Below are positions 7,052 through 22,906 of a DNA stretch of 64,000 nucleotides, piece after piece. The notes under the pieces were generated by a model that saw nothing but the letters and a program-made list of their open reading frames with translations, searched no databases and was not told where the DNA came from. The translations under genes and the position numbers were made by a program. The DNA lies in assembly GCA_016209985.1 (NCBI GenBank), contig JACQVB010000115.1, positions 7,210-71,209 on the forward strand, written 5' to 3'. Positions within the stretch are counted from its first letter, which is position 1; each line of letters starts with the position of its first letter. Origin of the DNA: Gemmatimonadota bacterium (GTDB lineage: Bacteria > Gemmatimonadota > Gemmatimonadetes > Gemmatimonadales > GWC2-71-9).

Positions 7052-7801
7052 ATGCTTCAAAGAACTGCTAAGAAAGCCATGCCGAACAAGAAACTGACTG
7101 AATCGACCCACCACGTCCGCGGTGATCGTACAGCGCGAGTTTACAACACGCTCCGCGACTTGATCGTACGTGGGACGCTCGCACCAGGGACCAGAATCAC
7201 CGAACCTGACGTTGTGAGTCGTTTAGGCGTAAGTCGAACTCCGGTACGCTCTGCTCTAGAAAAGCTGTACCACGAGGGTTACGTGGTGGTGCAGCGCGAT
7301 GGCGGTCGCTCCCAACTGGCTGTGGCGCCGCTCACGGAAGCCGACCTTAGAGAGCTCCTTTACGTCATGGGCGTGAACGAGGGTCTGGCGGGCCGTTATG
7401 CGGCCCTGCTGCCGCCCGGGGAACGATCCGTACTCGTTCGGCAACTCAGAAAGCTGAATGCGCACCTGAGGCGTGCGGCAGAAGCAGCCCCTGCGGATGC
7501 ATATCGGTTCTATCAGCTGGACCAGGATTTTCATGCGTCTTACGTAGACGTCGCTGCTGGCCCCCGGTTACGGGAGCTGCTTCGGTCGATCAGGCCACAG
7601 GCCGACCGGTACATTTGGGTATACGTCAGTGCCCTTCAAAGCGAGATCCTAACCTCGGTGCGGGAGCATCGGCGGATCATTGCGGCCATTGATCGTGGGA
7701 AGTCGAACGCCGCTCAGCAGGCCGTGCAGACCAACTGGTGGAACGCCGCGGAGCGCTTGAGCAGGGTTGTTCGGCGGGTCGGGGAGCGCGGACGCTGGTA
7801 G
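7052..7801 (+). CDS. GntR-family transcriptional regulator (FadR/FCD-type C-terminal domain)
   Basis: Winged-HTH segment RVYNTLRDLIVRGTLAPGTRITEPDVVSRLGVSRTPVRSALEKLYHEGYVV, followed by a helical effector domain. The alternative start ATG 7079 cannot be excluded. Confidence 0.85.
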   Translation: MLQRTAKKAMPNKKLTESTHHVRGDRTARVYNTLRDLIVRGTLAPGTRITEPDVVSRLGVSRTPVRSALEKLYHEGYVVVQRDGGRSQLAVAPLTEADLRELLYVMGVNEGLAGRYAALLPPGERSVLVRQLRKLNAHLRRAAEAAPADAYRFYQLDQDFHASYVDVAAGPRLRELLRSIRPQADRYIWVYVSALQSEILTSVREHRRIIAAIDRGKSNAAQQAVQTNWWNAAERLSRVVRRVGERGRW

Positions 7802-8365
7802 CGGGTGACGCCGCATCCCTTTCCGGATGGAGCAGACGATTCCGAACGTCGTTTATGTATGGGAAAGCTCTGCTTACTGTCCCCTTCGGGGAGGAAAGCC
7901 CTCGCCTTTAGGCGAAGAAAGATTCGCGACATGGTCGCGGAGCGACTATGAGCGAGCAGTTGCCGTTAGGTTGTGGCGAGATGTTGGGGACCTCGCTGCC
8001 GACTTCCAGTCGGCCTTCACTTTCACTGCGTTAGGCAACCCCCCGGCTTCAAGCCGGGGGTGCGGATTAGTCCTGGGTCCTCATCTGTAGCATTCGTGTC
8101 CCACATTTATTCCCGAGCAAGGCGCATCCCCATTTTGGTCCGCCCGGCCATCGGACCGGACCCCGCTATAGAGATTAGAGTCAGCCCCCGGTTCTGGGCT
8201 GGCGGCCCCCACGCATGTTGCTGGGGTGCCGCGGCTTCTCTGCCCGTAGGTCACGATTGAATTGTGTTCGGCTTTAATTCGGGTGGAGCGGTGCGGGTCG
8301 GGCGGAGCACCCCTGAACCTATTGCGCGCCTAAAGCCCAATTACTAGTATGGCCCTTGAGAAATG

Positions 8366-8496
8366 CGTATACGTCAACGTATACGAACTTGCCCCAGGCG
8401 ATTCCGGCCGTCCCCATTGAGGGCTTCTAGCGCGGGCACATACTGAGTTCGTCTCATAGCTGCGGTGTCCCGCTTGATGTATGCGTCAGCGTATAC
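8366..8496. promoter_or_regulatory. Candidate GntR operator set: CGTATACG palindromes at 8366-8373 and 8378-8385, GTATAC at 8491-8496
   Basis: Perfect 8-bp palindromes lie 12 bp apart. A related copy (ATGCGTCAGCGTATAC) is also present. All are upstream of the preferred SusC start at 8570 and downstream of the GntR gene. GT-N-AC cores are the generic GntR-family operator pattern. Confidence 0.35.
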
Positions 8497-8569: not shown

Positions 8570-11500
8570 ATGGCGATCCGGCGGATAGCGCTTTGTTTCA
8601 CTCTGGGCGGGCTGGCCTTCCTGGTGCTCACCATTCCCGCTCTCTCGCAGACGGGCCCGATCGTGGGTAGCGTCGTAGACTCCCGTTCACAGCCGGTGGC
8701 GAACGCTCGTGTTGCGGTCGAGGGTGCAGGTCTGCAAACGCAGACCAACGCCAGCGGCCAGTTTCGGCTCGGTGAGGTTCAGGGACCCGAAGTCACGCTT
8801 CGCGTGACAAGAATCGGATACACGCCGCTTTTGGAGAAGGTTCTAGTGGGACGAGCCGATCTCCGCTTGGTTCTGGCCGACGCCGCGATTCAGCTCAACG
8901 CCATTGTGGTTACCGGTACGGCCGGAGCGGTTGAGCGACGAACCGTGGGGAACGCGATCTCGACGGTGAACGTAGCCGACTTGGTCAGACTAGCCTCTGC
9001 GCCTGACATCACCAGGCTGATTAATGGCCGTGCTACCGGCGTCACCGTCGTGCCCGGAACCGGTGTAGTGGGGGCCGGGCCACGGGTGAATATCCGCGGC
9101 CAGAAGAGCCTGTCGCTCAGCGATCAGCCGTTGGTCTATGTAGACGGAGTGCGGGTCAATAACGACATATCCGCGGGGCCCAAGACACAGGGATTCGGCT
9201 CCGGCGTGATCTCCCGCCTGGGTGATTTCGCTCCCGAGGATATCGAAAGTATTGAAATCATCAAAGGACCGGCTGCCGCGACGCTTTATGGAACTGAGGC
9301 GTCGAATGGCGTGATTCAAATCATCACCAAGCGAGGGCAGGTAAGTCGCCCCACCCTGGATCTCGCCGTGCGACAGGGTACGACGTGGTTCATGAATCCC
9401 CAGGGTCGCATTCCGCACAATTTCGGGATCAATCCCGCCGATGGCAGCCTCATCGAATTGGACTATGTCAAGCAGGAAAGCGATCGCGGCACGCCCATTT
9501 TCACCAATGGGTACCTATCGGGATACAACGGCAACTTGAGTGGAGGTACTGAGCTCGCACGATACAATTTCAATGCCGGCTATGACCGTGATAACGGCAT
9601 CGAGTGGACCAACCGGGTAAGACGCTTTACCGGGCGCGCCAATGTCCAGGCCACCCCATCGAAGAATCTCGATCTCAGCGCGAATCTGGGAACTGTTCGA
9701 TCAGATATCTACCTCGCCAATGACATCGGCAATGGGGCGCTTTTCAACACGCTTTACGGGTTCCCGTCCACGAGGGACACGTTTCGAAGAGGGTTCTTCC
9801 GTGCTCCTCCTGATGTGCTGAGGCGAACGATCGAACAGGCCCAGTTTTTGAATCGCTTCACCGGCAGCTTCCAGATCAACTATCGCGCGACGCCATGGTT
9901 GAGCCAGCGACTCGTGGCGGGGCTGGATCAAACTAACGAACGAAACCAGGATTTCAGGCCGCACCTTTCGCCCGACGATGCAAAGTTCTACTCGCCAACG
10001 GCGGCGCTCGGAAGCCGGACGGTTCAGTTTCAAGGGACTACCTACCATTCCATTGACTACGGTGCGACTGCGAACCTCAAGCTCTCTGGCCGCCTTACCT
10101 CTGCTACTTCGGTCGGCGCTCAGCTCTATCGCAGGCGAACAGAATCCGCCACGGCCATCGGGCAACAGTTTCCTGCATCAGGGCTAAGCGCTGTTTCGGC
10201 GGCGGCGGTCACGTTCGGCAGCGAAGATTTTGTTACGAATACGACTGTCGGCACATACGTCCAGGAGCAGTTCGGGCTTAACGGGCGAGTCTATCTGACT
10301 GGAGCCGTTCGCTTCGACGAAAACAGCGCTTTCGGGAAGAATCGCCATTTGGCCAGGTACCCGAAATTCAGCGGCACGTGGGTAATCAGTGAAGAACCAT
10401 TCTGGCCGCTTTCGTTCGTCAACACGCTCAAGTTGCGCGGTGCTTACGGCCAGTCGGGAATACAGCCCGACGCGTTTGCCGCCCTTCGCACCTTCCAGGC
10501 GGTGTCAGCTGGCGGCGGGGCCGCTGTGAGTCCTCAATTCATTGGCAATCCAGATCTGGGTCCCGAACGCAGCACCGAGTGGGAAGGCGGATTCGAGACG
10601 GCCCTTCTGAATGAGCGACTCACACTCGACGTCACCGGCTACTACACCAAAACTACCGATGCCATCTTGTTGCGCAATCAAGCTCCTTCCCTGGGATTCC
10701 CGGGAGCTCAGTTCGTCAACATTGGTGCCCTGCGGAATCAGGGATTCGAAATACAACTCAATACCACCATTCTGAACACGTCCGACGTAACCTGGAACCT
10801 TGGCTTTAACATCTCGCAAAACGACAACAAGATCCTGGACTTGGGTGGCCTGGGGACTACCGTCGCCCTGGGAGGCGGGGGCACCACGCAGGCCATCGTG
10901 GTACCAAGCCTGGTGGACAATCCGGGCATCGTGTTGCGACATCAGGTTGGGCTTCCGGCTGGTTCCTGGTTCGGGAAGAAGATCATAAGTGCCACACTAG
11001 ATGCGAACGGCATAGCGCAAAATATCAAGTGCGACGGTGGTCTTCCCAATAGCAGCATGCCTGGTGGGCCAGCGGTCGATTGTGATGTTGCACCGCAGCT
11101 CTATCTGGGGCGGTCCGACCCGAGGCGGCAAGGAGCGGCCAACGCGAAAGTCACGCTCTTTAAGCGACTGACACTCTATGGTCAAGTGGATTTCAAACTG
11201 GATGTCAGGCACGCCGATAACGACACCAACATTCGCTGTTCGCTCTTCTTCGTGTGCGAAGCCAACTTCAGACCGGAGAAGTACGACCCGGCATTGATCG
11301 CGGAATACCAGAGCGGCTTTATCGGCTCGTTCGTTGCTGCCAACGCGGCCTTTGCCAAGTTGCGGGAGGTGTCGGCCAGCCTGGTCCTCCCGACTTCCTG
11401 GGCCCATCGCATCGGAGCCCGGAGCGCGAGCATCTCGGTCGCGGGTCGGAACCTCCACACCTGGACCAGCTTCACCAGCTTGGACCCGGAGACACTGTGG

Positions 11501-11599
11501 ATCGGCGCCGGAGCGTCGCGCTTCACCTTTGACAAGACGGTTCAAGCATTCGTCCCGCAGCTGGCATCCGTCACAGCCACCATGAATTTGCGCTTCTAG
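8570..11599 (+). CDS. SusC/RagA-type TonB-dependent transporter, copy 2 (divergent lineage)
   Basis: ORF 8465..11599, with the start moved to ATG 8570 (GGAAGGGAG 7 nt upstream). The signal is MAIRRIALCFTLGGLAFLVLTIPALSQ. It has a CarboxypepD_reg-like N-domain (GSVVDSRSQPVANARVAVEG...), a plug (IESIEIIKGPAAATLYGTEASNGVIQIITKRG) and a barrel ending ATMNLRF. Confidence 0.9.
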   Translation: MAIRRIALCFTLGGLAFLVLTIPALSQTGPIVGSVVDSRSQPVANARVAVEGAGLQTQTNASGQFRLGEVQGPEVTLRVTRIGYTPLLEKVLVGRADLRLVLADAAIQLNAIVVTGTAGAVERRTVGNAISTVNVADLVRLASAPDITRLINGRATGVTVVPGTGVVGAGPRVNIRGQKSLSLSDQPLVYVDGVRVNNDISAGPKTQGFGSGVISRLGDFAPEDIESIEIIKGPAAATLYGTEASNGVIQIITKRGQVSRPTLDLAVRQGTTWFMNPQGRIPHNFGINPADGSLIELDYVKQESDRGTPIFTNGYLSGYNGNLSGGTELARYNFNAGYDRDNGIEWTNRVRRFTGRANVQATPSKNLDLSANLGTVRSDIYLANDIGNGALFNTLYGFPSTRDTFRRGFFRAPPDVLRRTIEQAQFLNRFTGSFQINYRATPWLSQRLVAGLDQTNERNQDFRPHLSPDDAKFYSPTAALGSRTVQFQGTTYHSIDYGATANLKLSGRLTSATSVGAQLYRRRTESATAIGQQFPASGLSAVSAAAVTFGSEDFVTNTTVGTYVQEQFGLNGRVYLTGAVRFDENSAFGKNRHLARYPKFSGTWVISEEPFWPLSFVNTLKLRGAYGQSGIQPDAFAALRTFQAVSAGGGAAVSPQFIGNPDLGPERSTEWEGGFETALLNERLTLDVTGYYTKTTDAILLRNQAPSLGFPGAQFVNIGALRNQGFEIQLNTTILNTSDVTWNLGFNISQNDNKILDLGGLGTTVALGGGGTTQAIVVPSLVDNPGIVLRHQVGLPAGSWFGKKIISATLDANGIAQNIKCDGGLPNSSMPGGPAVDCDVAPQLYLGRSDPRRQGAANAKVTLFKRLTLYGQVDFKLDVRHADNDTNIRCSLFFVCEANFRPEKYDPALIAEYQSGFIGSFVAANAAFAKLREVSASLVLPTSWAHRIGARSASISVAGRNLHTWTSFTSLDPETLWIGAGASRFTFDKTVQAFVPQLASVTATMNLRF

Positions 11600-11625: not shown

Positions 11626-12918
11626 ATGAAACACGGACGGCCATTGGAAATTCCGGCGCGGCTCGTCAGAACAGCAGGCACCTGCGTGGGGGTGATCGGA
11701 CTGGCCGCGACCACAGGGTGCATCAACGACCTTCTCAACGTCGAGACGCCGACCAGTGTACTTGCCGACAGTCTGACCGGGCCGGCTAGTGTGCCACTAC
11801 TCGTGGCGGGTGCCGTAGCCGATTTCGAGTGCGCCCTGGGTGCCCATATCTACGTGACCGGCCTGCTGACCGACGAGCTCATGGATACGCAATTGCAGGG
11901 GGCCGAGTCCTTCAACTACGATCGCCGGACCGTGTCCCCGGCAGGCAAGGAGTACGCGACCCAGCCCTGCGACTTCTTCGGCGGGATCTATCAACCGATC
12001 AGCACCGCGCGGTGGTCTGCAGACAATGCCCTCAAGCAGCTGGATGCCTACTCGGATGCCGAGATTACCGGCCGCACGGCCCTGATTGCCAAGGCGGCTG
12101 CCTATTCGGCGTACAGCCTCGTGCTGCTGGGCGAGGCGTTTTGCACCGCCGCGATCGATGCCGGCCCCGAGCTAACGTCCGCCCAAGTGCTCGCCCTGGC
12201 CGAGACAAAATTCACCCGCGCCATCGACGCGGCCACAACCGCAGGTACCACCGACATCCGGAACATGGCGTTGGTAGGACGGGCGCGCGCGCGGCGCGAC
12301 CTCAAGAAGACGGCCGAGGCGGTGCAAGATGCTCAGTCGGTACCCGCTGGGTTCGTCAAGAATGCGACGTACTCGGCTGCGGCAAGTCGCGCCTTCAATC
12401 GAGTCTATCAGATGAATGTACGCGACCTGAGAGTGTCGATTGACGCCCCGTTCCGTGGCGTCACCTACCAGGGCACACCTGATCCGCGGGTGCCGGTTGT
12501 CAACAGTGGAGTCCAGTCCGGAGATGGCGGTCAGTATACCGTCTGGATCACCACCAAATACAAGTCGCTGAGCGATCCAATTCCCATTGCCCGGTGGGCA
12601 GAAGTCCAGCTGATCATTGCCGAAGCTCTGGGAGGCCAAACTGCGGTGAACATCATTAACGCGCTGCACGCGGCCGCCGGACTGCCCAGCTTCAGCAGCA
12701 GCGATCCAGTAGAGATTGCCAATCAAGTGCTTGAGGAGCGGAGAAGAGAGCTGTTCCTCGAGGGACAGCATCTGTTCGATACCATCCTCTACAATTTGCC
12801 ACTGATACCGCCTCCCGGCACCTCGTATGGTTTCAAGGGAGGATCGTACGGGTCCACGAGGTGCATGCCTTTGCCGGATGCCGAGAGGGATAACAACCCC
12901 ACGCTCAGCGGTCGATAG
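11626..12918 (+). CDS. SusD/RagB-family lipoprotein, copy 2
   Basis: ORF 11611..12918. ATG 11626 is preferred (GAGGGGG upstream). The Cys signal is ...VIGLAATTGC. It lies directly downstream of SusC copy 2, with SusD-like C-terminal helices (LEERRRELFLEGQHLFD). Confidence 0.8.
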   Translation: MKHGRPLEIPARLVRTAGTCVGVIGLAATTGCINDLLNVETPTSVLADSLTGPASVPLLVAGAVADFECALGAHIYVTGLLTDELMDTQLQGAESFNYDRRTVSPAGKEYATQPCDFFGGIYQPISTARWSADNALKQLDAYSDAEITGRTALIAKAAAYSAYSLVLLGEAFCTAAIDAGPELTSAQVLALAETKFTRAIDAATTAGTTDIRNMALVGRARARRDLKKTAEAVQDAQSVPAGFVKNATYSAAASRAFNRVYQMNVRDLRVSIDAPFRGVTYQGTPDPRVPVVNSGVQSGDGGQYTVWITTKYKSLSDPIPIARWAEVQLIIAEALGGQTAVNIINALHAAAGLPSFSSSDPVEIANQVLEERRRELFLEGQHLFDTILYNLPLIPPPGTSYGFKGGSYGSTRCMPLPDAERDNNPTLSGR

Positions 12919-13007: not shown

Positions 13008-14447
13008 ATGCGAAAGACACTGATTTCCGCCGGAGCGCTTTGCCTGTACGCTGCGAGTTTGCTGGCTCAGGCGGCATCTACCTTGTCACCCAGGGTGCGG
13101 GAGTACGTCAGCGTCGATGCGCCCGTGGTCGCCCTCACCCATACCCGGGTGATGGACGGCACGGGTGGGCCCCTACTTGCCGACCAGACCATCGTAATCG
13201 CCAATGGCCGCATTCAGTCAGTCGGCGGTTCTGGTACCGTCCAAGTCCCGGCGGGAGCGAGGGCACTGGACCTCTCGGGGCACACCGTGATTCCAGGGAT
13301 GGTCGGTTTGCACGACCACATCGTCTACGAGACCAACAATCGCATCGTTAACCTGAACTTCAGCGCTCCCCGGTTGTACCTCGCGAGCGGGGTTACCACC
13401 ATCCGGACCACGGGGGCTCTGGAGCCGTATTCGGAATTGAGCCTGAAGCACGAAATCGAACGAGGGCGGATTCCCGGCCCGCGAATGCACCTCACCGGTC
13501 CCCATATCTCGGATGGTGAACCGTTCGATCTAGGCCTTCCGGGGAACACGGTACTCTGGTTCCGCTTCGTAAAGACTCCGGAGGAGGCCCGCCGTGTCGT
13601 GGCCTACTGGGCCGAGGAGGGCGCCGATTGGATCAAGCTGTACACGAGAATCACCCGGGCGGAGGCAGCGGCGGTCGTCGATGAGGCACATAAACGCGGA
13701 GTTAAGGTGACCGGCCACCTTTGCTCGGTCAGCTTTCGCGAGGCCGCTGCGCTGGGAATGGACAACGTAGACCACGGGTTCCTGGTGAATACAGACTACG
13801 ACCCGTTGAAGCAACCAGATCAGTGCCCCCCCGATTTCCGTCAGCGGCTGCTCGGCGTTGACCTCAACTCCGACGAGGTCCGGGCGACGTTCCGGGACCT
13901 AGTGGCCAAGCACGTCGCGATGACATCGACACTCGCGGTGTTCGAGCCGTCGGTTCCCAATCGTCCGCCGATGGATCAGCGGGTGCTGGACGCCTTAGAC
14001 CCCGAGGTTCGAGCGGAGTTCCTCGGGGTCCGAAACCAGCGAGCAATGAGCAGGGATACGACCGCGCTCCTTCTCTTTCGGAAAGCGCAACAGTACGAGG
14101 TCGCCTTTGTAAAGGCTGGGGGCCTGCTGGCGGCTGGGATGGACCCGAACAACGGCAATCTCCCGGGCTTCGGCGACCAGCGCAACTACGAATTGTACAT
14201 CGAAGCTGGATTCACTCCGGCCCAGGCGGTGCAGATCCTGAGCGCCAATGGGGCCAAGGTGCTTGGTGTATCTGATTCGCTTGGCACGGTGGCGGCTGGC
14301 AAGCTGGCCGATCTGGTAGTAATCCGAGGAGACCCGGCGAGCAATCCGGCGGACATCCGGAACGTAACGATCGTATTCAAGGACGGGGTGGGGTACGACT
14401 CAGCGAAGTTAATCGAATCGGTCCGCGGATTAGTCGGCGTACGTTGA
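13008..14447 (+). CDS. Secreted amidohydrolase-superfamily metallohydrolase A (COG1228-like)
   Basis: ORF 12972..14447, with the start at ATG 13008 (AAGGGAG upstream). The signal is MRKTLISAGALCLYAASLLAQA. It has the HxH metal motif (GLHDHIVYE). It is a paralog of 18405..19835. Confidence 0.85.
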   Translation: MRKTLISAGALCLYAASLLAQAASTLSPRVREYVSVDAPVVALTHTRVMDGTGGPLLADQTIVIANGRIQSVGGSGTVQVPAGARALDLSGHTVIPGMVGLHDHIVYETNNRIVNLNFSAPRLYLASGVTTIRTTGALEPYSELSLKHEIERGRIPGPRMHLTGPHISDGEPFDLGLPGNTVLWFRFVKTPEEARRVVAYWAEEGADWIKLYTRITRAEAAAVVDEAHKRGVKVTGHLCSVSFREAAALGMDNVDHGFLVNTDYDPLKQPDQCPPDFRQRLLGVDLNSDEVRATFRDLVAKHVAMTSTLAVFEPSVPNRPPMDQRVLDALDPEVRAEFLGVRNQRAMSRDTTALLLFRKAQQYEVAFVKAGGLLAAGMDPNNGNLPGFGDQRNYELYIEAGFTPAQAVQILSANGAKVLGVSDSLGTVAAGKLADLVVIRGDPASNPADIRNVTIVFKDGVGYDSAKLIESVRGLVGVR

Positions 14448-14532: not shown

Positions 14533-15501
14533 ATAAAACTCCAGATTCTTACCGCGGAAGATGTGCGCGCAGCTATTGACATGCGGGAAGCAATCGCTGC
14601 GATGGGTGAGGCATTCGGCCAGCTATCTGCGGGGCTGGCCCGGGTACCGGTGCGCTTGCGGCTGGAGGCGGCGGCCGGGGTTACGCTGTTCATGCCTGCG
14701 TATCTGGGACGCACTCAGGATCTCGGCGCCAAGATCGTTTCGTTTTACGGCGACAATCCTCGGCGGGGGTTGCCGGCGATCAGTGCCGTGGTGCTGGTAT
14801 TCGATAGTGAGACTGGAATGCCAAAGGCCCTGATGGATGCCGGGTACCTGACGGCGCTGCGGACGGGAGCTGCTTCCGGCCTGGCCACGGAACTGCTGGC
14901 GCGGCGGGATGCAACCGTGCTGACCATATTCGGCGCGGGTGCTCAAGCGCCGCTACAGATAGACGCCATTCGTTGCGTTCGGCCAATCCGAGAGGTCCGT
15001 GTGGTATCACGCCGGCGGGAGTCGGCCCAGCGTCTCGCGGACCAAATCCAGGGAGTCGAGGTGCGGGTCTTCGAGGACCGTTCGGCTGCCGTTGCGGGCG
15101 CCCACATCATTATCGCCGCCACTACCAGCACAACTCCTGTATTCGATGGTCACGACGTTGAGCCTGGGACGCATATCAACGGGATTGGCTCTTATACCCC
15201 AGAGATGCAAGAGGTGGACGCCACGGTCGTTCAGCGTGCCAAGATCGTCGTCGATTCGCGCGAGGCCGCACTCGCCGAAGCAGGGGACCTGATCATTCCC
15301 TTGCGTCAGAAGACGATCCGGCAGGACCAGGTATACGCCGAACTGGGAGAGATTGTGAATGGCACAAAACCCGGCCGGACGTCGGACACCGAAATCACGT
15401 TTTTTAAGTCGGTCGGCGTCGCGGTGCAGGATGTCGCGGTGGCGCGACGCGTACTTCGCGCGGCGGAGTCGCAGGCACACCTGGCAGTGGTCGATCTCTG
15501 A
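14533..15501 (+). CDS. Ornithine cyclodeaminase / mu-crystallin family protein (start proposed at ATA 14533)
   Basis: The tool ORF starts at GTG 14563, but the frame is open from TAG 14521. AGGAG (14522-14526) sits 6 nt before ATA 14533, giving [17 protein letters not shown]..., a typical family N-terminus. The Rossmann motif IFGAGAQA is present. Confidence 0.8.
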
Positions 15502-15555: not shown

Positions 15556-16746
15556 ATGAAGATCACCGAACTCAAAACCACGATCGTCTGCGTGCCCTTC
15601 TGCAAGCTCTATCCGTGGCGCCTGGGAGTGGCGCACGGGATTACGGTCGTGCTCGTGGAACTTGCCACCGATGTCGGGCTGGTGGGCATCGGGGAATCCC
15701 CCTGCTTCTTTCCGCCTGCTGAGGCGACGAAGGGGATCCTGGATGCAGCCGCTCCATTGTTGGCAGGCGAAGACCCCTTTGACCACGAGCGCATTTACCG
15801 GCGAATCCTGGTGCAGAACGGTCTCTACTATGACCGGGTTTTCGCTGGCCTGGCTCTCTCAGGACTGGATTTGGCTCTCTGGGATCTGATGGGCAAAGCC
15901 ACCGGACAGCCGCTCTACAAGCTCATTGGGGGGCGAGTGCACCAGGTAGCTCGCTTCATCTCCATCGTACCGCTCGCGGAGCCTTCGCTCATGGCCGACA
16001 CAGCTCGCGAGGTGGTTGCCGCCGGCTGCAAAACCGTATACCTGAAATACGACGGTGACGATAGGGCACTCGTGGCCCGGTTGAAGGCGGTCCGCCAGGC
16101 AGTCGGACCAGATGTGAAGATCAGAGTGGACTTCAACCAAGGATTGTCAGCAGGCTACGCCGTCAAGTTTCTGCGATCACTGGAACTCCTAGATCTCGAA
16201 GCGGTGGAGCAGCCCTGCGGGGAAGATGACCTTGATGGAATGCGCTATGTCCGACAGTCAATCGGTACGCCGGTTATTTCGGATGAGAGTTCCAAGACAC
16301 TTCACCGAGCCTACGCCACGATCAAGGCTGAAGCGGCTGATGTCATTCAGGTGGAACCGTACTCCAGCGACGGGATTTGGGGCGCCCGGAAAGTGTGTGG
16401 GATGGCGGAGGCCGGTGGATTGCCGGTGGTCTTCCACTCGGTGGGCGAACTCGGTCTGAATCAAATGAAGTTGGTCCATCTTGCCGTCTCGACACCCAAC
16501 GCCACGCTCGATCACCAGACGCTATACGACTATAACAGCGACGATGTCATCCAGGGCGGGCTTATGCCGTTCGATGAGTGGACGATGAGTCCGCCAGATC
16601 GGCCTGGCCTAGGGGTGGAGCTGGATGTGGATCGGGTTCGTGAGTACGCCGCGTGCTACCGTGAAGGCGGCGGGCTGTACGTGACGGGCCGGACGAGTGG
16701 AACTCGGATTCGGCGTGCGGTTGGACCCGCGAAGATAGTGGCCTGA
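15556..16746 (+). CDS. Enolase-superfamily enzyme (mandelate racemase / muconate lactonizing enzyme subgroup)
   Basis: ORF 15544..16746, with ATG 15556 ([15 protein letters not shown]). It shows the metal-ligand pattern RVDFNQ ... VEQP ... ISDES typical of MR/MLE members. Confidence 0.85.
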
Positions 16747-16751
16747 TCCAC

Positions 16752-18176
16752 TTGCTCATCGCTACGATCGTTGCCTACCTCGGAGCCTGCATCGCCGTAG
16801 GCGTCTATTACGCCAACAAGATGCAGAGCGTGGAGGATTGGGCGGTGGCCGGACGCCGCCTCCCCTGGCTGATCGTGCTCGGTACGACCGCCGCGACGTT
16901 GATCGGCGGCGGGGCGACGGTCGGATCCATCGCCACCGGGTACACCGTGGGACTGGCCATCGCGATCGTGACGACGGGGTGGCATCTCCAAACCATCTTC
17001 GCGGGTCTGTTTATCGCGCCACATTTTCGCCGACTGCCATTCTACACGGTGGCGGATTTCTTCGGATATCGATATGGAGAGTTCGCCCGGATCCTGGTCA
17101 GCTGTCTGTCGCTCGCTTTTTGCATCGGCGTCTTGGGCGCGCAGATCGTCGCCATGGGCCGGATAGCCGAACCGATACTGGGCATGCCGTTCATTTGGGC
17201 CGCGATAGTGGGGGCCGGTGTCGTCACGCTCTACTCGTTCTTGGGCGGTTATTGGGCCGTGACGCAGACCGATATGCTGCAATTCGTCATTCTGGTATTT
17301 GGTTTTCTCACGGCTGCGCTCCTCGGTCTTAAGGCCGTCGGTGGTTATGAAGGTCTTGCCGCCGAGCTGCCGGCCGGGCATTTGCGCCTGTTTGGCCACT
17401 GGACGCCGCAAAAAGTTCTGGGTGTGTGGTTGGCCATGCTGCTGGGCGAGACTTTTTCGCCGATCTACGTGCAGCGGTACTACTCGGCTCAGGATGATCG
17501 CCAAGCACGGTGGGGTACATTAGGCGCCGGCTTGTTCATGCTTTTCTTCCTCCCAATAACGGTGGTAACGCTCGGGATGGTGGCGCGCGTGACATTTCCC
17601 AATATCACGGCGCCCGACCAGGCCTGGGCCCTACTGGTCACCCGGCTGTTTCCCCCCGCGCTGACCGGACTCTTCATTGCGGCCGCCCTGGCGGCGGTCA
17701 TGTCGTCAGCGTCATCCGTACTGGGCAGCGCGGCCACAATTGTGGTACGAGACTTCTATCAGAAACTGGTGCGACCCGGGGGGAAACAGCACCGGCTCGT
17801 GAGGGTGGCGCGCGGCGCTACCCTGATAGTCGCTGCCGTTGCCACCGTCGTCGCGCTGCTCGTTCCGAACGTGCTGAACTTACTTCTCTACTCATACAAT
17901 CTCTGGGCACCGGCGATCGTGTTACCGGTACTGATCGGTGTGCTCTGGTACCGGAGAGAGACGATCTACCCGGTAGTCACGTCCATGCTAGTCGGACTGG
18001 TAACAGCCGTCACGTGGCTAAGCATGCACGAGCCACTCGATTTGCAGGCTTCGGTGGCTGGTTTCCTTGCGGCGCTGGTCACTTTTGTCCTGAGCCGGCA
18101 TCTGCTTGGCCGATTGGCGTTGAGGAAGAATTTCCGACCACATGAACTCGACCCCGTAGCTGCGGTGGAGGGATAG
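16752..18176 (+). CDS. Sodium:solute symporter family (SSF) transporter
   Basis: 474-aa polytopic ORF with a TTG start. The N-terminal pattern is IVAYLGACIAVGVYYANKMQSVEDWAVAGRRLPW...GGGATVG, characteristic of SSF/PutP-PanF-like carriers. Confidence 0.85.
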   Translation: MLIATIVAYLGACIAVGVYYANKMQSVEDWAVAGRRLPWLIVLGTTAATLIGGGATVGSIATGYTVGLAIAIVTTGWHLQTIFAGLFIAPHFRRLPFYTVADFFGYRYGEFARILVSCLSLAFCIGVLGAQIVAMGRIAEPILGMPFIWAAIVGAGVVTLYSFLGGYWAVTQTDMLQFVILVFGFLTAALLGLKAVGGYEGLAAELPAGHLRLFGHWTPQKVLGVWLAMLLGETFSPIYVQRYYSAQDDRQARWGTLGAGLFMLFFLPITVVTLGMVARVTFPNITAPDQAWALLVTRLFPPALTGLFIAAALAAVMSSASSVLGSAATIVVRDFYQKLVRPGGKQHRLVRVARGATLIVAAVATVVALLVPNVLNLLLYSYNLWAPAIVLPVLIGVLWYRRETIYPVVTSMLVGLVTAVTWLSMHEPLDLQASVAGFLAALVTFVLSRHLLGRLALRKNFRPHELDPVAAVEG

Positions 18177-18179
18177 CCG

Positions 18180-18293
18180 GTGTTCTGGTGGAACGTAGCG
18201 ATGACTGTGGCCTCCGTCCTCGGGTACGGGGTCGTCATCGTGACAACCCTCTACTACCTCAGCCCGCTGAGACGACGAGCGTCCGGGAAGTAG
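18180..18293 (+). CDS. Possible 37-aa single-pass membrane peptide coupled to the symporter
   Basis: GTG 18180 lies 3 nt after the symporter stop. The product is VFWWNVAMTVASVLGYGVVIVTTLYYLSPLRRRASGK*, one hydrophobic helix plus a basic tail. It is below the ORF-track size cutoff. Small subunits accompany some SSF carriers. Confidence 0.35.
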   Translation: MFWWNVAMTVASVLGYGVVIVTTLYYLSPLRRRASGK

Positions 18294-18404: not shown

Positions 18405-19835
18405 ATGCGCGCGCTCATGGTTGTGCTGGCGACCGTAACCCTGGTAGGCCGTGCGTCTGCGCAAAGGGCGGCTTCTCTATCCCCTACCGTGCGAGAGGTT
18501 GTTAGCGTGGACGCGCCCGTGGTGGCCCTCACGCACGTACGCGTCATCGACGGCACCGGTGGGCCGATCGCCAACGACCAAACCGTTGTCATCGCCAATG
18601 GAAGAATCCAGGCGGTCGGGCGCACCGGCGCGGTCCAGGTTCCGGGGGCAGCTAGGGTCTTGGACCTCTCGGGACACACGGTGTTCCCCGGGTTCGTGGG
18701 AATGCACGATCACATTGTCTACGAGACGACCAACCGTATCGTGTCTCTGGGTTTCAGTGCCCCTCGGCTGTACTTCGCGAGCGGCGTTACCACCATCAAG
18801 ACCACCGGGGCCGCCGATCCCTACGGGGAGATCAACATCAAACGGGAGATCGATCAGGGCCGCTCTCCCGGCCCACGGATGCACCTGGCCGGCCCGCACA
18901 TCACGGGCGGCAGACCATGGGATTTGGGCAACCCGGGGAACCGTGTGCTGTGGATGCGCCACGTCTCGACGCCTGAGGAGGCACGCCGGGTAGTGGACTA
19001 CTGGGCCGATGAGGGTGCCACCTTCTTCAAGGTGTATACCGACATCTCTCGGCGAGAGCTGGCGGCGGTCATCGACCAGGCGCACAAAAGAGGCCTGAAG
19101 GTCTCCGGCCACCTCTGCTCGGTCACGTTTCGCGAAGCGGTCGCCCTAGGCATCGACCTTCTCGAACATGGGCTCACTGCCAATACTGACTACCACCCGC
19201 GCAAGGTACCGGACGTTTGCCCTCCCGACAGGGCGGCCGGGCTGGCGGAGCTGGACCTCACCAGCGAAGCCGTGAAGGCCACCTTCCGCGACATGATGGC
19301 CAAGGGCGTCGGGATGACCTCGAACCTGGCAGGGGCTGAGTTGGCGGCTAATCTCGCGCCGATGGATGAACGGGTGGTTGTCGCCCTATCTCCGGAGACG
19401 CTGGCGGAAGCGCTGGCGGCGCGCGCTAATATCGCTGCTACGCAGGCGGAAGCGCGTCAGTTGTTCAAGCAGCGAGTGCGGTACGAGATGGAATTCGTGA
19501 AGGCCGGCGGATTGCTTATGGGCGCTTCCGACCCGAATGGTCTAAACCTGCCGGGCTTTGGAGATCAGCGTGAGTTCGAATTGCTGGTGCAAGCGGGCCT
19601 CACTCCGGCGCAAGTAGTGCAGATTATGAGCGCAAATGGCGCCAAGGTGCTCGGAGTCCTCGACAGCCTTGGCACCGTCACCCAGGGGAAACTGGCGGAT
19701 CTCATCGTCATTCAAGGAGATCCAGCGACGAACCCGGCCGACATCAAGAGGATAACGATCGTTTTCAAGGATGGGGTGGGCTACGACTCGGCAAAGTTGA
19801 TTGCGTCAGTTCGAGGTCTGGTAGGAGTGCGGTGA
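18405..19835 (+). CDS. Secreted amidohydrolase-superfamily metallohydrolase B (paralog of 13008..14447)
   Basis: ORF 18330..19835, with ATG 18405 (AAGGAG upstream). The signal is MRALMVVLATVTLVGRASAQ. It is colinear with copy A over its whole length (SPTVREVVSVDAPVVALTHVRVIDGTGGP..., GMHDHIVYE, ...KDGVGYDSAKLI.SVRGLVGVR). Confidence 0.85.
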   Translation: MRALMVVLATVTLVGRASAQRAASLSPTVREVVSVDAPVVALTHVRVIDGTGGPIANDQTVVIANGRIQAVGRTGAVQVPGAARVLDLSGHTVFPGFVGMHDHIVYETTNRIVSLGFSAPRLYFASGVTTIKTTGAADPYGEINIKREIDQGRSPGPRMHLAGPHITGGRPWDLGNPGNRVLWMRHVSTPEEARRVVDYWADEGATFFKVYTDISRRELAAVIDQAHKRGLKVSGHLCSVTFREAVALGIDLLEHGLTANTDYHPRKVPDVCPPDRAAGLAELDLTSEAVKATFRDMMAKGVGMTSNLAGAELAANLAPMDERVVVALSPETLAEALAARANIAATQAEARQLFKQRVRYEMEFVKAGGLLMGASDPNGLNLPGFGDQREFELLVQAGLTPAQVVQIMSANGAKVLGVLDSLGTVTQGKLADLIVIQGDPATNPADIKRITIVFKDGVGYDSAKLIASVRGLVGVR

Positions 19836-19908: not shown

Positions 19909-21654
19909 ATGCGCGCGCTCATGGTTCTGCTGTCCCTGTTCATCCTCGTAGCTCGAGCGTCTGCCCAAACGACGGGTTTACTCTTCCCTCTCGGCTTTTC
20001 GGCTATCTCGATGGCGACAGCGATGCCTTCGAGGGCCGCCAGCCTTCCGGTGGTGCCGGCTCCTCCGGCAGGAGGTACGGTGCACGAAACGGTGTTTACT
20101 CCGCCGGCGTGGGCCGTGCCACTGGGAGTCGATGCGAAGGCGGAAGCTGCCGTTCTCGCAGCGGACTGCCCAGCGCTCGCGACCGCGGATTTCTCAAAGA
20201 TCCAGGATGCGCCAACGCGAGTGATCAGTGCGAGGCTCGTGGAAGCGAGTGGCGAGCTGCCCGCCTATTGCCAGGTGCAGGGCCTGGTCCTGCCCAGCGT
20301 CGGTTTTGAGCTCCGATTGCCCACGTCCAATTGGAACGGAAAACTATTTGAAGCCGGTTGCGGAGGCTTCTGCGGCAACATTCCCATAGCGGCCTGCGAA
20401 GTTCCCCTGAGAAGGGGCTATGCCTGCATTGCGACCGACATGGGCAACAAGGGCGGACGGACCAATGGTCTGGTGTTCTATAACAACCTCCAAGCGCAAA
20501 TTGACTTTGGCTTTCGCGGCGCGCACGTGACGGCGGTGGCGGGCAAGGCGATCACCGAATCTTACTACGCCAAAGCACCCAGCAAAGCGTACTTCATGGG
20601 ATGTTCCTCGGGTGGCCAGCAGGCGTTTGCGGAGGCGCAGCGCTTCCCGTGGGATTTTGATGGCATCATTGCCGGCGCTCCGTCTCCGACGTTCTCCGGC
20701 CCTATGATGTATTACGAATGGGCGGGCCGGCAGCTGGTAGGCAAGCTGACTCCCGCCAATCTTCAACTCCTTCATGAAAAGGCGGTAGCGAAGTGTGATC
20801 TGGACGATGGACTGAAGGATGGACTCATCGGTTATCCGCCGAGCTGCAAGTTCGACCCGGCTGAGCTCCGGTGCCGTTCCGGGGGACAAAGCGCCTGCTT
20901 GACTGGGGAGCAGGTGGAAGCCGTGAAGAAGGTGTATGCCGGTCCCATGACGTCGAAAGGTGAAAAGATCTACACCGGTGGGCCTATGGTCGGTTCGGAG
21001 CTCAACTGGTTCGGTCCCGGCCCGGCGTACGGCAACAGCTCCATTACCGGCGCCTATGGTAATAGCGATGGCAGCGCCATGTCCGCCTGGCCCAGCGAGT
21101 ACTTCCGTTACGTCGGCTTCATGCCCGCTCAGGGTCCGGAGGGGGAATACCGCGCCTTTGACTTCGATCGCGATTACAAGCGCTTAGGAATGGCAGAGGC
21201 CCTCTTCGGCTATGCGATGAACCCTGACCTGCGGAAGTTCGCGGCCGCGGGCGGCAAGATGATCCTGTACAATGGATGGGCGGATCAGTCGGACATTCCC
21301 TCCGATGCCATCGATTACTACGAGATGGCCGAAAGGACCATGGGCGGCCGCGCGGCGACGCAGCAGTTCTTCCGTCTCTTCCTGATTCCCGGCATGAATC
21401 ACTGCTGGGGCGGGGAAGGCGCATTTGCCATCGATTATCTGAGCTATTTGGAAGCGTGGGTTGAACGGGGTCAAGCACCCGATGTGATGATCGGGGCGCA
21501 TCTCACTGGAGAACCCGGGCCTGCGTACAAGTTCCCGCTGGACCAGAGCAAAGTGAGTTTCACCCGTCCGGTATATCCCTATCCGCTTCAGGCGAGATAC
21601 CAGGGCACCGGAGATCCCAACAACGCCGCCAACTTCCGCCCGGTCGGGCCGTAA
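19909..21654 (+). CDS. Tannase/feruloyl-esterase-family alpha/beta hydrolase (secreted)
   Basis: ORF 19858..21654, with ATG 19909. The signal is MRALMVLLSLFILVARASAQ. The family nucleophile motif is GCSSGGQQAFAEAQRFPWDFDGIIAGAPS. Confidence 0.8.
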   Translation: MRALMVLLSLFILVARASAQTTGLLFPLGFSAISMATAMPSRAASLPVVPAPPAGGTVHETVFTPPAWAVPLGVDAKAEAAVLAADCPALATADFSKIQDAPTRVISARLVEASGELPAYCQVQGLVLPSVGFELRLPTSNWNGKLFEAGCGGFCGNIPIAACEVPLRRGYACIATDMGNKGGRTNGLVFYNNLQAQIDFGFRGAHVTAVAGKAITESYYAKAPSKAYFMGCSSGGQQAFAEAQRFPWDFDGIIAGAPSPTFSGPMMYYEWAGRQLVGKLTPANLQLLHEKAVAKCDLDDGLKDGLIGYPPSCKFDPAELRCRSGGQSACLTGEQVEAVKKVYAGPMTSKGEKIYTGGPMVGSELNWFGPGPAYGNSSITGAYGNSDGSAMSAWPSEYFRYVGFMPAQGPEGEYRAFDFDRDYKRLGMAEALFGYAMNPDLRKFAAAGGKMILYNGWADQSDIPSDAIDYYEMAERTMGGRAATQQFFRLFLIPGMNHCWGGEGAFAIDYLSYLEAWVERGQAPDVMIGAHLTGEPGPAYKFPLDQSKVSFTRPVYPYPLQARYQGTGDPNNAANFRPVGP

Positions 21655-21655
21655 G

Positions 21656-22906
21656 ATCGGCAGCCGCATAGCCGTCGTCGGCGCGGGGGTGATCGGTCTC
21701 GCCGCCGCCTACGCGTTCCGCCACCGGCAGCACACGGTAACGGTGATCGACCGAGGGCCGCCCGGAGGCGAGTGCTCGCGTGGCAACGCCGGTTGGGTCG
21801 TGCCGTTCCTTTCCGGCCCACTGCCGGCCCCCGGCCTTGGACTTCGCTCGCTCGGGTGGATGCTACGCCGCGACAGCCCGCTGCACGTCGATCTGCGGGC
21901 GTTGCCCGGTCTGGCGCCGTGGCTCTGGCGCTTCTGGCGACACTGTAACGCCCGGGACTACGCCCACGGGCTTGAGGCGGTGGCGACGCTGAACGGCGCC
22001 ACCATGCGGCTGTTCGATGCCTGGGCTGCCGATGGCGTAGCGTTTGAAATGCACCAGTCGGGTCTTCTCGTCGTCTTCCTCGACCGCGCCCATGCGCCGG
22101 AGGCGATGGTAGACTTCGCGGCGCTGGAGGATCTCGGCTACGCGGTGCCTAAGCTGCTCACCGGGGATGCGCTTCGCGCCATTGAGCCCGACCTCAGCGA
22201 GCAAGTCACCGGAGGCTTCCTGGTGGAGAGCGAACGCCACGTGCGGCCAGAGAGCCTAACCGCGGGCCTGGCCCGCCGGGTGGAGGAGCTCGGCGTCACG
22301 GTCCGTTCCGGTGTGGGGGTGCTGGGGGCAGTCGGCGGGGGCCGAGTGATACGGGCGCTGCGTACCTCGGAGGGCGAGCTCGCCGCAGACCGCTTCCTGA
22401 TCGCCGCAGGCGCCTGGAGCGGTCGGCTCGCCGCCACCATGGGAGCGGCGCTCCCGGTCGAGGCCGGCAAGGGCTACAGTATCACCGTGGCAGATCCCGC
22501 GCTGAGCCTTCGCCGACCCCTCTATTTCGGAGAGGCGAAGATCGGCGTTTCTCCGTTCCGGAACAGTGTACGGGTGGCGGGGACCATGGAACTCTCGGGC
22601 ATGAACACCCGCCTCCACGTGCGGCGGCTCGCGGCGCTTCGGCGGAGCGCCGAGCGCTACCTCCGGGTACGGCCGGCCTGGGAACGAGGCGAGGAATGGG
22701 TGGGACTGCGAGCGATCACGCCGGATGGCCTTCCGCTAATCGGCCGCCTTCCCGGCTACGATAACGTCTACGTCGCGACGGGCCACGGGATGCTGGGCGT
22801 GACCCTGGCACCCGCCACCGCCGAGCTCGTGGCAGACCTCATGGATGGCTGCACGGACGACGTTGCCGCGTCGTTCGATCCGGCGCGCTTCGCCCGCCGG
22901 ACCTAG
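21656..22906 (+). CDS. FAD-dependent oxidoreductase, D-amino-acid dehydrogenase (DadA)-like; start uncertain (ATC 21656 or ATA 21668)
   Basis: The tool ORF starts at GTG 21689, inside the dinucleotide-binding motif. The frame is open from 21557 and reads ...KIGSRIAVVGAGVIGLAAAYAF. No ATG/GTG/TTG lies upstream of the GxGxxG motif. Confidence 0.75.
   Translation: MGSRIAVVGAGVIGLAAAYAFRHRQHTVTVIDRGPPGGECSRGNAGWVVPFLSGPLPAPGLGLRSLGWMLRRDSPLHVDLRALPGLAPWLWRFWRHCNARDYAHGLEAVATLNGATMRLFDAWAADGVAFEMHQSGLLVVFLDRAHAPEAMVDFAALEDLGYAVPKLLTGDALRAIEPDLSEQVTGGFLVESERHVRPESLTAGLARRVEELGVTVRSGVGVLGAVGGGRVIRALRTSEGELAADRFLIAAGAWSGRLAATMGAALPVEAGKGYSITVADPALSLRRPLYFGEAKIGVSPFRNSVRVAGTMELSGMNTRLHVRRLAALRRSAERYLRVRPAWERGEEWVGLRAITPDGLPLIGRLPGYDNVYVATGHGMLGVTLAPATAELVADLMDGCTDDVAASFDPARFARRT

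Follow-up and report, generated by a model that had tools for sequence, protein, structure and literature searches.

A SusC/SusD locus without carbohydrate-active enzymes in a Gemmatimonadota bacterium and its possible role in the use of a conjugated amino acid

We have analyzed a stretch of 64,000 nucleotides from a Gemmatimonadota bacterium (contig JACQVB010000115.1, positions 7,210 to 71,209; hereafter the window) in which a run of eleven genes joins an outer-membrane transporter pair of the SusC/SusD type to secreted hydrolases and to enzymes typical of amino acid metabolism (Table 1). This run is one conserved functional unit rather than a set of chance neighbors. We give an even chance to the reading that it is a catabolic unit, controlled by a GntR regulator and fed by SusC/SusD, for a non-carbohydrate compound in which an unusual amino acid is held by ester and/or amide bonds. 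Its enolase-superfamily enzyme, its ornithine cyclodeaminase (OCD) family enzyme and its DadA-like dehydrogenase are best read as performing alpha-carbon and ketimine chemistry on an imino or D-amino acid. The strongest argument for a ketimine route is that OCD and Ldh_2 enzymes replace each other beside related enolases. Both halves of this picture are already known: there are SusC/SusD (SusCD) systems with non-glycan cargo (RagAB), and imino-acid pathways built from enolase, DAO and OCD enzymes. What is new is that both come together, along with a tannase-family esterase, in one conserved locus of Gemmatimonadota, and that the enolase belongs to an uncharacterized subfamily.

Table 1. Features of the locus and of its immediate surroundings in the window
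Feature	Position	Strand	Evidence
Candidate GntR operator GTCTACGAGATCGTATGC	7026..7043		GTATACG-N4-CGTATAC with 2 mismatches; 8 nt before the gntR start
GntR regulator, FadR/FCD subfamily	7052..7801	+	PF00392 53 bits, PF07729 52.2 bits
Candidate operator 1, upstream of susC	8367..8384		Perfect inverted repeat GTATACG-TCAA-CGTATAC
Candidate operator 2 GTATGCGTCAGCGTATAC	8479..8496		1 mismatch relative to operator 1; 74 nt before the susC ATG
SusC/RagA TonB-dependent transporter (CarboxypepD_reg, Plug and barrel)	8570..11599	+	TIGR04056 407.7 bits (cut-off 368.25)
SusD/RagB lipoprotein, short (430 aa)	11626..12918	+	PF07980 44.5 bits (gathering 23.1)
Secreted amidohydrolase A (AmhA; binuclear-metal, Cc2672/ochratoxinase-like)	13008..14447	+	PF01979; signal peptide
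OCD/mu-crystallin NAD(P)H enzyme, probable ketimine reductase	14563..15501	+	PF02423 267 bits
Enolase-superfamily enzyme, uncharacterized subfamily	15556..16746	+	PF02746 and PF13378 (MR_MLE_N and C)
Sodium:solute symporter (SSF), nearest the PutP/PanF group	16752..18176	+	TIGR00813 187.1 bits (cut-off 184)
37-aa hydrophobic open reading frame, probable symporter small subunit	18180..18293	+	GTG start 3 nt past the SSF stop
Secreted amidohydrolase B (AmhB), AmhA paralog	18405..19835	+	68% identical to AmhA
Secreted tannase/feruloyl-esterase/MHETase-family serine esterase	19909..21654	+	PF07519 357.6 bits
DadA-like FAD amino-acid dehydrogenase, start uncertain	21656..22906	+	PF01266 199.7 bits
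Stand-alone 253-aa CarboxypepD_reg and Plug protein, without barrel	23066..23827	+	Membership in the unit uncertain

A conserved unit of eleven genes

The proteins of the locus were scanned with Pfam and NCBIfam, and the spacing was computed from realistic start codons. All eleven genes, which an earlier note on this DNA had listed as a co-directional run, were recovered on the + strand between 7052 and 22906, each at its listed coordinates. They are separated by 1 to 115 nt, the sole exception being the 768 nt between gntR and susC. None of them has a glycoside hydrolase, polysaccharide lyase or carbohydrate esterase domain in either database. The locus thus has the transporter pair of a polysaccharide utilization locus and lacks the carbohydrate-active enzymes (CAZymes), in line with the earlier claims of a non-glycan SusC/SusD locus and of the absence of CAZymes. 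AmhA, AmhB and the tannase open with signal peptides, as expected from their previous description as secreted hydrolases, and none is found on the OCD-family enzyme, the enolase or the DadA-like protein.

That the genes form one unit, as also proposed before, is borne out by related contigs (designated here by L numbers). The most complete is L114 (32.6 kb), which carries in order a divergent GntR gene, SoxD-SoxA-(SoxG)-SoxB-like genes, SusC, SusD, the tannase, a multicopper oxidase, AmhA, the OCD-family enzyme, the enolase, AmhB, the SSF, a 37-aa open reading frame (ORF) and a DAO-family dehydrogenase. Identities to the window proteins are 77% for SusC and SusD, 75% for the tannase and AmhA, 81% for the OCD-family enzyme, 84% for the enolase, 72% for AmhB, 76% for the SSF and 52% for the dehydrogenase. 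In the window, the Amh-OCD-enolase-SSF block stands between SusD and the tannase. Since the whole set stays together in L114 despite the reshuffled order, the run is a real unit. We also considered that a SusCD-tannase locus could have received this block as a module of its own, and rejected this as the principal reading for the same reason. Parts of the set are found in L086 (multicopper-oxidase position, AmhA, OCD, enolase, AmhB), in L087 (enolase, SSF, 37-aa ORF), and in L112 and L113 (SusC, SusD, tannase), the latter with an upstream GntR gene. SusC orthologs are 77 to 79% identical in L112 and L114 and 59% identical in L113. Two additions of L114 have no homolog in the window: a set resembling heterotetrameric sarcosine oxidase at 750-5321 (SoxD, SoxA with a GCV_T domain, a weak SoxG, and a SoxB that scores 448 bits, below its cut-off of 529), and a 739-aa laccase/CueO-like multicopper oxidase at 11756-13975.

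The locus differs in composition from its surroundings. The GC content is 0.59 to 0.63 at positions 8000-22000 and 0.63 to 0.70 in most of the flanks. At third codon positions (GC3) it is 0.73 to 0.74 in the three locus genes passing the listing threshold of 0.72, 0.80 in dadA and below 0.72 in the remainder, with 0.75 to 0.87 in the flanking genes. This could indicate lateral acquisition. The signal peptides of AmhB (18405-18464, MRALMVVLATVTLVGRASAQ) and of the tannase (19909-19968, MRALMVLLSLFILVARASAQ) are nearly identical, possibly a remnant of the event that rearranged the gene blocks.

The enolase and its partner enzymes

The enolase-superfamily enzyme has both domains of the superfamily, a strand-2 base in a Tyr-x-Lys motif (Lys164), three acidic metal ligands at strands 3 to 5 (Asp192, Glu218 and Glu244), Glu267 and His294. 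In an alignment of 26 homologs, Y162, K164, D192, N194, E218 and E244 are the same throughout and H294 almost throughout, and strand 6 ends in Glu or Asp, never in Lys. An AlphaFold model (pLDDT 90.6) places the catalytic residues at the C-terminal ends of barrel strands 2 to 7. The second Lys, at strand 6, that marks the muconate lactonizing enzyme (MLE) subgroup (HpbD, LhpJ and the dipeptide and N-succinyl epimerases) is thus missing. The NCBIfam scores agree: 103.5 bits with NF043002 and 84.8 with NF041118 (cut-off 500 for both), and 85 and 50 bits with the L-Ala-D/L-Glu epimerase models (cut-offs 500 and 343). Hence, we rejected a dipeptide or N-succinyl-amino-acid epimerase, HpbD and LhpJ as its identity, and the membership among hydroxyproline-betaine epimerases and cis-3-hydroxyproline dehydratases that the earlier note implied does not hold, the strand-6 Lys being replaced by Glu or Asp together with a strand-7 His.

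The enzyme comes closer to the mandelate racemase (MR) subgroup, with its Lys and its Glu267/His294 dyad, the strand-2 motif being Tyr-x-Lys instead of Lys-x-Lys. The set parallels K166/D195/E221/E247/D270/H297 of mandelate racemase. Judged from the modeled active site, such residues would equip the enzyme for abstraction of an alpha-proton from both faces, in an epimerization or a beta-elimination. The top NCBIfam scores are weak and belong to galactonate dehydratase (NF010624, 130 bits, cut-off 311) and arabinonate dehydratase (129 bits). The closest structure is PDB 2PGW (167 bits, 29% identity), which is also the top Foldseek match (TM 0.89/0.95), followed among PDB matches by N-succinyl Arg/Lys racemase and dipeptide epimerases. 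2PGW shares the Tyr-x-Lys motif, the strand-7 His and a following gene of an imine-reductase type, and differs in having Gly at strand 6, where the window family has Glu or Asp, and in its neighbors, which include a betaine ABC transporter and an MttB methyltransferase and no SusCD. The window subfamily is small, with about 28 clusters at ≥59% identity, every one of them metagenomic. A scan of the GTDB species representatives with the enolase alignment gave no close relative (best 40%); the patterns used there are generic for the superfamily, so that most of the 80 loci retrieved hold distant enolases and serve as a background set only. A metagenome scan with the close-family alignment gave at least 3 close loci. 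Our literature searches on 2PGW, on Gemmatimonadota with SusD and on SusC with tannase found nothing relevant.

The OCD-family gene lies immediately upstream of the enolase gene in the window, L086 and L114. Its best PDB match is 6t3e, the delta1-pyrroline-2-carboxylate (Pyr2C) reductase of Thermococcus (235.5 bits), and NCBIfam models of reductase type outscore the cyclodeaminase model, none reaching its cut-off. The values are 274.5 bits (cut-off 322) with NF004793, for reductases of Pyr2C and delta1-piperideine-2-carboxylate (Pip2C), and 150.3 bits (cut-off 350) with NF005762, for true cyclodeaminases. The protein does not qualify as an ornithine cyclodeaminase proper. As a Pyr2C reductase, an activity that the earlier note listed for this family, it is backed by its best solved relative and falls short of the family model. 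The OCD and MLD2 (Ldh_2) superfamilies are the two families of experimentally shown proline-ketimine (Pyr2C) reductases (PMC4113996, PMC5144071). The OCD superfamily acts on alpha-amino-acid ketimines and includes L-arginine dehydrogenase (PMC4113996).

The third enzyme, related to flavin adenine dinucleotide (FAD) dependent dehydrogenases, misses the cut-off of the DadA model NF001933 (234.7 bits; cut-off 383), which leaves it DadA-like and outside DadA proper. Its 5' end is peculiar. The tannase stop TAA (21652-21654) is followed by a single base and by ATC at 21656, with ATA at 21668 as an alternative non-canonical start. The Rossmann motif IAVVGAGVIG precedes the first canonical start (GTG 21689), and no ATG, GTG or TTG lies upstream of the FAD-binding GxGxxG motif within 21652-21700. 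The ortholog of L114 begins with MSRVVVIGGG, and the window has only ATC or ATA at that place. The gene either uses a non-canonical start with translational coupling, is a pseudogene, or reflects an assembly error in the metagenome-assembled genome (MAG).

The symporter passes the general SSF model and scores 138.5 bits with the PutP model TIGR02121 (cut-off 515.5), which does not bear out the PutP-type proline carrier mentioned in the earlier note. It follows the enolase in L087 and lies inside the cluster in L114. The adjacent 37-aa ORF has no Pfam or NCBIfam match. An ORF of this length stands directly after the SSF stop in L087 and L114 as well, with the motif V[FL]WW[NK][VL]AM..A.VLGYG. 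Given this same-place conservation in two related contigs, it very probably encodes a real small membrane partner, and the subunit that the earlier note regarded as possible gains support.

Importer and periplasmic hydrolases

SusC belongs to the SusC/RagA family by its domains and by the full-length model, and is just below the cut-off of the short signature TIGR04057 (41.9; cut-off 46.2). SusD belongs to SusD/RagB, starts 26 nt after susC and has a lipoprotein-type N-terminus (...GLAATTGC). It is a member of a large family of about 425 aa, whose taxon-named matches are Gemmatimonadota/Longimicrobiales MAGs.

Both amidohydrolases have 3mtw, the L-Xaa-L-Arg/Lys carboxypeptidase Cc2672, as best PDB match (107.7 bits for AmhA, 97.7 for AmhB), and retain all of its binuclear-metal ligands; in AmhA these are HxH, Lys, His, His and Asp. 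The solved relatives also include 9l2t and 8ihq, amide hydrolases of the ochratoxin-degrading type. The matches span only residues 52-275 and 380-473, with a divergent middle of about 100 residues. The Xaa-Pro dipeptidase model NF051886 gives 142 and 131 bits for AmhA and AmhB (cut-off 500), which does not support membership among the Xaa-Pro dipeptidases that the earlier note mentioned for COG1228-type proteins. L114 and L086 each keep an AmhA ortholog (75%) and a distinct AmhB ortholog (72%), which argues for two different specificities.

The predicted translation of the tannase gene belongs to the PF07519 family and contains the nucleophile motif GCSSGG and an NHC motif. Its closest solved relatives are MHETase (6qz1, 195.7 bits) and fungal feruloyl esterases. 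The ortholog is the gene immediately 3' of SusD in L112, L113 and L114, and this position points to an ester-linked, possibly phenolic, conjugate as the cargo rather than to plain collagen peptides. An ortholog of 84% identity occurs in L115, remote from any SusCD, with PaaABCD-like aromatic-ring oxygenase genes nearby. Relative to the Cc2672-type and ochratoxinase-like amidohydrolases and to the tannase-MHETase family, the locus proteins share fold-family motifs, catalytic residues and secretion, and differ in being only about 25 to 35% identical.

Recurrence of the gene set

The combination of functions recurs independently in L119, which was found via a 63% homolog of the tannase. It has an Ldh_2 gene, a dehydrogenase of the DadA subfamily (NF001933, 400.9 bits, above the cut-off of 383), an enolase of the 2PGW type (31% identical to the window enolase), two CocE/NonD S15 hydrolases and two tannases; three neighbors (u391, u322 and u242) have no Pfam or NCBIfam matches. 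The set of esterase, peptidase, enolase, FAD dehydrogenase and imine reductase is thus built again, with non-orthologous replacement of OCD by Ldh_2 and of the amidohydrolase by S15.

The gene of 2PGW itself is on pSymA of Sinorhizobium meliloti (L117, CP140953.1, 720290-722415). It has an Ldh-family oxidoreductase directly 3', and upstream a glycine-betaine-type ABC transporter, a DddP/Xaa-Pro-like M24 protein, an isochorismatase and an MttB-family methyltransferase, a context that could steer the assignment of its function. A 2PGW-type enolase followed by an OCD homolog (38 to 47% identical to that of the window) was found in five loci from MAGs of Actinomycetota, Thermoleophilia and Pseudomonadota (L010, L011, L016, L030 and L036). 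In four of the five, all but the short contig L011, there is also a fused alpha and beta Fe-S serine-dehydratase-like protein of about 615 to 630 aa; the enolase-OCD-Fe-S triad lies at 8075-12341 in L010 and 9863-13768 in L016, and is also present in L030 and L036. Further neighbors are an M24 prolidase-like gene and a peptide ABC transporter in L010 and MttB-like genes in L036.

Closer orthologs of the enolase (64 to 72%) in L001, L121 and L122 are surrounded by MFS/PTR2 transporters, an M19 dipeptidase, S15, a regulator with helix-turn-helix (HTH) and cupin domains, and a TonB-dependent receptor; L121 and L122 additionally have a pyridoxal-phosphate-dependent threonine/serine-dehydratase-like protein. 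In L003 the neighbors are an adjacent GntR-FCD gene, an amino-acid permease, a TonB receptor, S15 and two GH67N-like proteins, in L004 they are PhyH, DHDPS, PIG-L, MFS, MlrC and SDR proteins, and in L089 MFS, DHDPS and Amidohydro_2 proteins. Genes for peptides and amino acids dominate these neighborhoods (S15/CocE-NonD, M19, M24, MlrC). On a Roseibium plasmid, a 33% homolog clearly lies among sugar-acid genes, in a locus with 2-keto-3-deoxygluconate (KDG) kinase and DHDPS.

Proposed pathway and its alternatives

We infer the substrates, the order of the steps and the regulation from what was observed, namely the gene content, the secretion signals, the intact catalytic motifs, the conserved gene set and the enolase-reductase pairing. 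SusC and SusD would bind the compound and carry it through the outer membrane into the periplasm. Here, the tannase-family serine esterase would open or remove an ester-linked group, probably of an aromatic-acyl or depsipeptide type, and AmhA and AmhB would cut C-terminal or N-acyl amide bonds to release the free amino acid, which the SSF and its 37-aa partner would bring into the cytoplasm. There the acid would be converted to an ordinary L-amino acid, most likely one related to proline or pipecolate, via a 2-imino (ketimine) intermediate. The DadA-like dehydrogenase would oxidize the D- or secondary-amine form. The enolase, with Lys164 and the His294-Glu267 pair around its Mg2+ site, would take the alpha-proton beside the carboxylate, leading to 2-epimerization of the acid or to beta-elimination of a hydroxyl, and the OCD-family enzyme would reduce the ketimine with NAD(P)H. 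A cyclic or alpha-ketimine intermediate is likely because OCD and Ldh_2, both families of Pyr2C reductases, interchange beside related enolases.

The earlier suggestion that an imino or D-amino acid is channeled through such enzymes keeps its chemistry, given the similarity of the OCD-family enzyme to 6t3e, the pairing of enolases with OCD or Ldh_2 and the adjoining peptidases, and loses the implied memberships in enzyme families. Its framing in terms of hydroxyproline and collagen peptides agrees poorly with a tannase directly after SusD in three relatives and with the laccase-like oxidase and SoxDAGB-like oxidase of L114. An ester-linked conjugate, possibly aromatic, N-alkylated or depsipeptide-like, fits better. 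As a hint of N-alkylated or imino acids in the pathway we note the SoxDAGB-like N-methyl or secondary-amine oxidase of L114 and the MttB genes that accompany 2PGW-type enzymes, and as a hint of an aromatic or ester-rich parent compound the tannase, the multicopper oxidase of L114 and the Paa genes in the vicinity of one tannase ortholog.

The locus could serve the use of phenolic esters or aromatic conjugates (tannins, hydroxycinnamates, phenolamides, ochratoxin-like amides or polyphenol-protein material), with the amino acid enzymes acting only in salvage. We consider this unlikely but still a serious alternative; it overlaps with the explanation that we favor and differs from it mainly as to which part of the substrate is the valuable one. 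The tannase family removes aromatic acyl esters, and ochratoxinase-like amidohydrolases cleave amides of aryl groups with amino acids. It would account for the retention of the tannase right after SusD in three contigs, for the laccase-like oxidase inserted beside it in L114, for the Paa-like genes in L115 and for the two tannases of L119, and it agrees with the action of MHETase and feruloyl esterases on aromatic-acid esters and with the ochratoxin link of 9l2t and 8ihq. However, the window locus has no genes for ring cleavage, decarboxylases or CoA ligases and no multicopper oxidase, its single inner-membrane importer is a PutP/PanF-like SSF, and its cytoplasmic enzymes are all of amino-acid or ketimine types. 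A salvage of peptides with D- or basic amino acids is rather improbable. Here, AmhA and AmhB would be Xaa-Arg/Lys carboxypeptidases, the enolase a dipeptide or N-acyl-amino-acid epimerase, and the DadA/OCD pair would invert D-Arg or D-Lys, either like DauA/DauB or from D-Lys via Pip2C to L-pipecolate. This reading has precedents in DauA/DauB and DpkA, and draws on Cc2672 as the best solved relative of both amidohydrolases, on the racemases and epimerases that come next after 2PGW, and on the M19 dipeptidases adjoining enolase orthologs. Yet the strand-6 Lys used by all characterized dipeptide and N-succinyl-amino-acid epimerases is absent, the L-Ala-D/L-Glu epimerase models score far below their cut-offs, the epimerase would be cytoplasmic and the hydrolases periplasmic, and the tannase is left without a role.

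It is very unlikely that the enolase is an MR-type acid-sugar dehydratase acting on an acidic glycan fragment in a sugar-acid or uronate pathway to which the OCD-family and DadA-like enzymes are unrelated. The score with such dehydratases is far under the cut-off, no CAZyme, kinase, aldolase or sugar transporter occurs in the window, L114 or L086, the enolase-OCD adjacency is conserved with Ldh_2 replacing the reductase elsewhere, and peptidases dominate the neighborhoods. What speaks for it is the MR-like set of Lys and His-acid residues with the best scores among sugar-acid dehydratases, the DHDPS, SDR, Amidohydro_2 and GH67N genes beside some orthologs, the Roseibium homolog, and the fact that FCD-type GntR regulators often sense sugar acids. 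As for unrelated co-directional operons lying side by side by chance, the SusCD-tannase and Amh-OCD-enolase-SSF parts do differ in relative order between loci and the tannase can occur alone, but this is hardly credible when L114 retains the rearranged set in full, L119 has the same functions from other protein families and the gaps are of ≤115 nt.

Several of these observations count against the conjugated-amino-acid pathway that we prefer, and should be kept in mind. The catalytic set of the enolase is MR-like and its best, if weak, scores are with sugar-acid dehydratases; the neighbors of some orthologs resemble sugar-acid pathways, and those of the Roseibium homolog clearly belong to one. 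The dadA gene has no canonical start in the window, and a very similar tannase is found away from SusCD. All specificities are extrapolated, as the enzymes of the locus fall short of every NCBIfam equivalog cut-off, and the enolase family is seen solely in metagenomic contigs and hence offers no experimental handle.

Comparison with known systems

RagAB of Porphyromonas gingivalis is a peptide importer of the SusCD type. Like SusCD and RagAB loci, the locus has susC next to a gene for a SusD lipoprotein, secreted hydrolases encoded after the pair, and a regulator of its own, and its cargo would be non-glycan as for RagAB. It differs from them in its host, which is not a member of the Bacteroidota, in its short SusD and lack of CAZymes, in having a GntR/FCD regulator and not a hybrid two-component system or an extracytoplasmic function (ECF) sigma/anti-sigma pair, and in enclosing a full cytoplasmic module for amino acid conversion.

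Known imino-acid pathways likewise combine an enolase-superfamily enzyme with a DAO-type FAD dehydrogenase and an OCD-family reductase, and the OCD-to-Ldh_2 exchange between related loci mirrors the two families of Pyr2C reductases (PMC4113996, PMC5144071). In those pathways the enolase-type LhpJ dehydrates cis-3-hydroxy-L-proline to Pyr2C (PMC5144071), whereas the enolase of the locus fails the family tests, with NF043002 far from its cut-off and no strand-6 Lys. The locus also lacks genes for the proline-racemase family, DHDPS and aldehyde dehydrogenase, and adds SusCD, the tannase and two periplasmic amidohydrolases. A further parallel is the pairing of an FAD D-amino-acid dehydrogenase with an NAD(P)H reductase of the OCD/MLD2 type. 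In Pseudomonas aeruginosa, DauA/DauB convert the D to the L form through 2-ketoarginine (PMC5619798), and in Pseudomonas putida D-Lys and D-Pro are used via DpkA. Unlike these, the DadA-like protein of the locus is below the family cut-off, and an enolase and secreted hydrolases are encoded around the pair.

Regulation

The regulator has an N-terminal GntR HTH and a C-terminal FCD domain, which places it in the FadR/FCD subfamily. The loci in L113 and L114 are likewise flanked by a GntR-FCD gene, the one in L113 being 61% identical over the C-terminal part. Sites matching GTATACG-N4-CGTATAC with ≤2 mismatches number 4 in the window, against 0.065 expected from shuffles, and three such palindromes fall exactly in the regions upstream of gntR and susC; in L114 a similar site, GTATAC-TCAA-GTGCATAC, is upstream of susC. 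A GT-N-AC core is typical of GntR operators, and the palindromes fit it. On the strength of these motifs, GntR may bind the candidate operators, and the site at 7026-7043 suggests autoregulation of gntR. The regulator would probably repress susC and its own gene at GTATACG-N4-CGTATAC, a repression that binding of an acid intermediate would lift.

The 768-nt spacer between gntR and susC (7802-8569) holds a perfect 10-bp GC-rich hairpin (8040-8060) and further stem-loops. We found no convincing ORF in it, and no riboswitch or small RNA with Rfam, either in this spacer with lax thresholds or in the whole window, where a distant tRNA-Thr was the only match. The equivalent spacer of L113 has a 143-aa ORF on the reverse strand. 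A scan of the locus for sigma-70 promoters returned 0 sites against 4.3 expected and is uninformative, the consensus not being applicable here; terminator-like hits in the locus were fewer than expected from shuffles.

Other SusC/SusD-associated genes in the window

The window has five SusC/SusD pairs. The other SusD genes (2512-3975, 32583-34310, 37346-38767 on the - strand, and 47759-49498) are 37 to 42% identical to each other, and the SusD of the locus is of a different, shorter type, with a local match of about 90 aa (34 to 36%) to two of the four.

The plug-only protein that follows the locus has a 40% homolog (259 aa, L087 3924-4703) after the SSF and 37-aa pair of L087. A second plug-only protein is encoded at 50996-51847 (+). 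Such proteins, of about 250 to 280 aa, correspond to the SusC N-terminus alone and stop just past the SusC signature. A hairpin follows each ORF, with a strong T-rich terminator after 50996-51847, and a search of the whole library gave many proteins of 244 to 266 aa among the best matches. From these sequences, they look like a real family.

Beside the other SusC/SusD pairs are seven secreted paralogs of 450 to 490 aa, 46 to 82% identical, at 4004-5473 (+) and, all on the - strand, at 23982-25403, 25481-26830, 26867-28255, 28371-29759, 34390-35757 and 35881-37302. They share the N-terminal motif ...PG.QGS.N.K..SH.P and are real genes, given their high GC3. Pfam finds no domain in them, and their single, weak match is to choice-of-anchor B (TIGR04312, 29 to 40 bits, cut-off 100).

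Implications

Most of what is understood about SusCD systems concerns glycan import in Bacteroidota, and a CAZyme-free locus in Gemmatimonadota, an abundant and poorly studied soil phylum, broadens the view of their cargo. The locus is also an entry point for assigning function to an enolase subfamily known only from metagenomes, to the orphan 2PGW, and to tannase-family esterases beyond the chemistry of aromatic polyesters and tannins. Its recurrence with Ldh_2 in place of OCD and S15 in place of the amidohydrolase is the type of signal that genome-neighborhood methods have earlier turned into pathways. Finally, we put forward, as a tentative idea that may well prove wrong, that the window-type and 2PGW-type enolases mark a widespread and unrecognized pathway. 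In it, a cyclic or N-alkylated amino acid conjugated by ester or amide bonds would be freed by a tannase-family esterase and a peptidase and then led via a ketimine to a standard amino acid, the enolase would catalyze a reaction so far unassigned in the superfamily with Lys and His-Glu on an MLE-like scaffold, and the pathway would be coupled to SusCD in Gemmatimonadota. If this were true, the locus would be among the first SusCD systems devoted to a small natural product that is neither glycan nor peptide.

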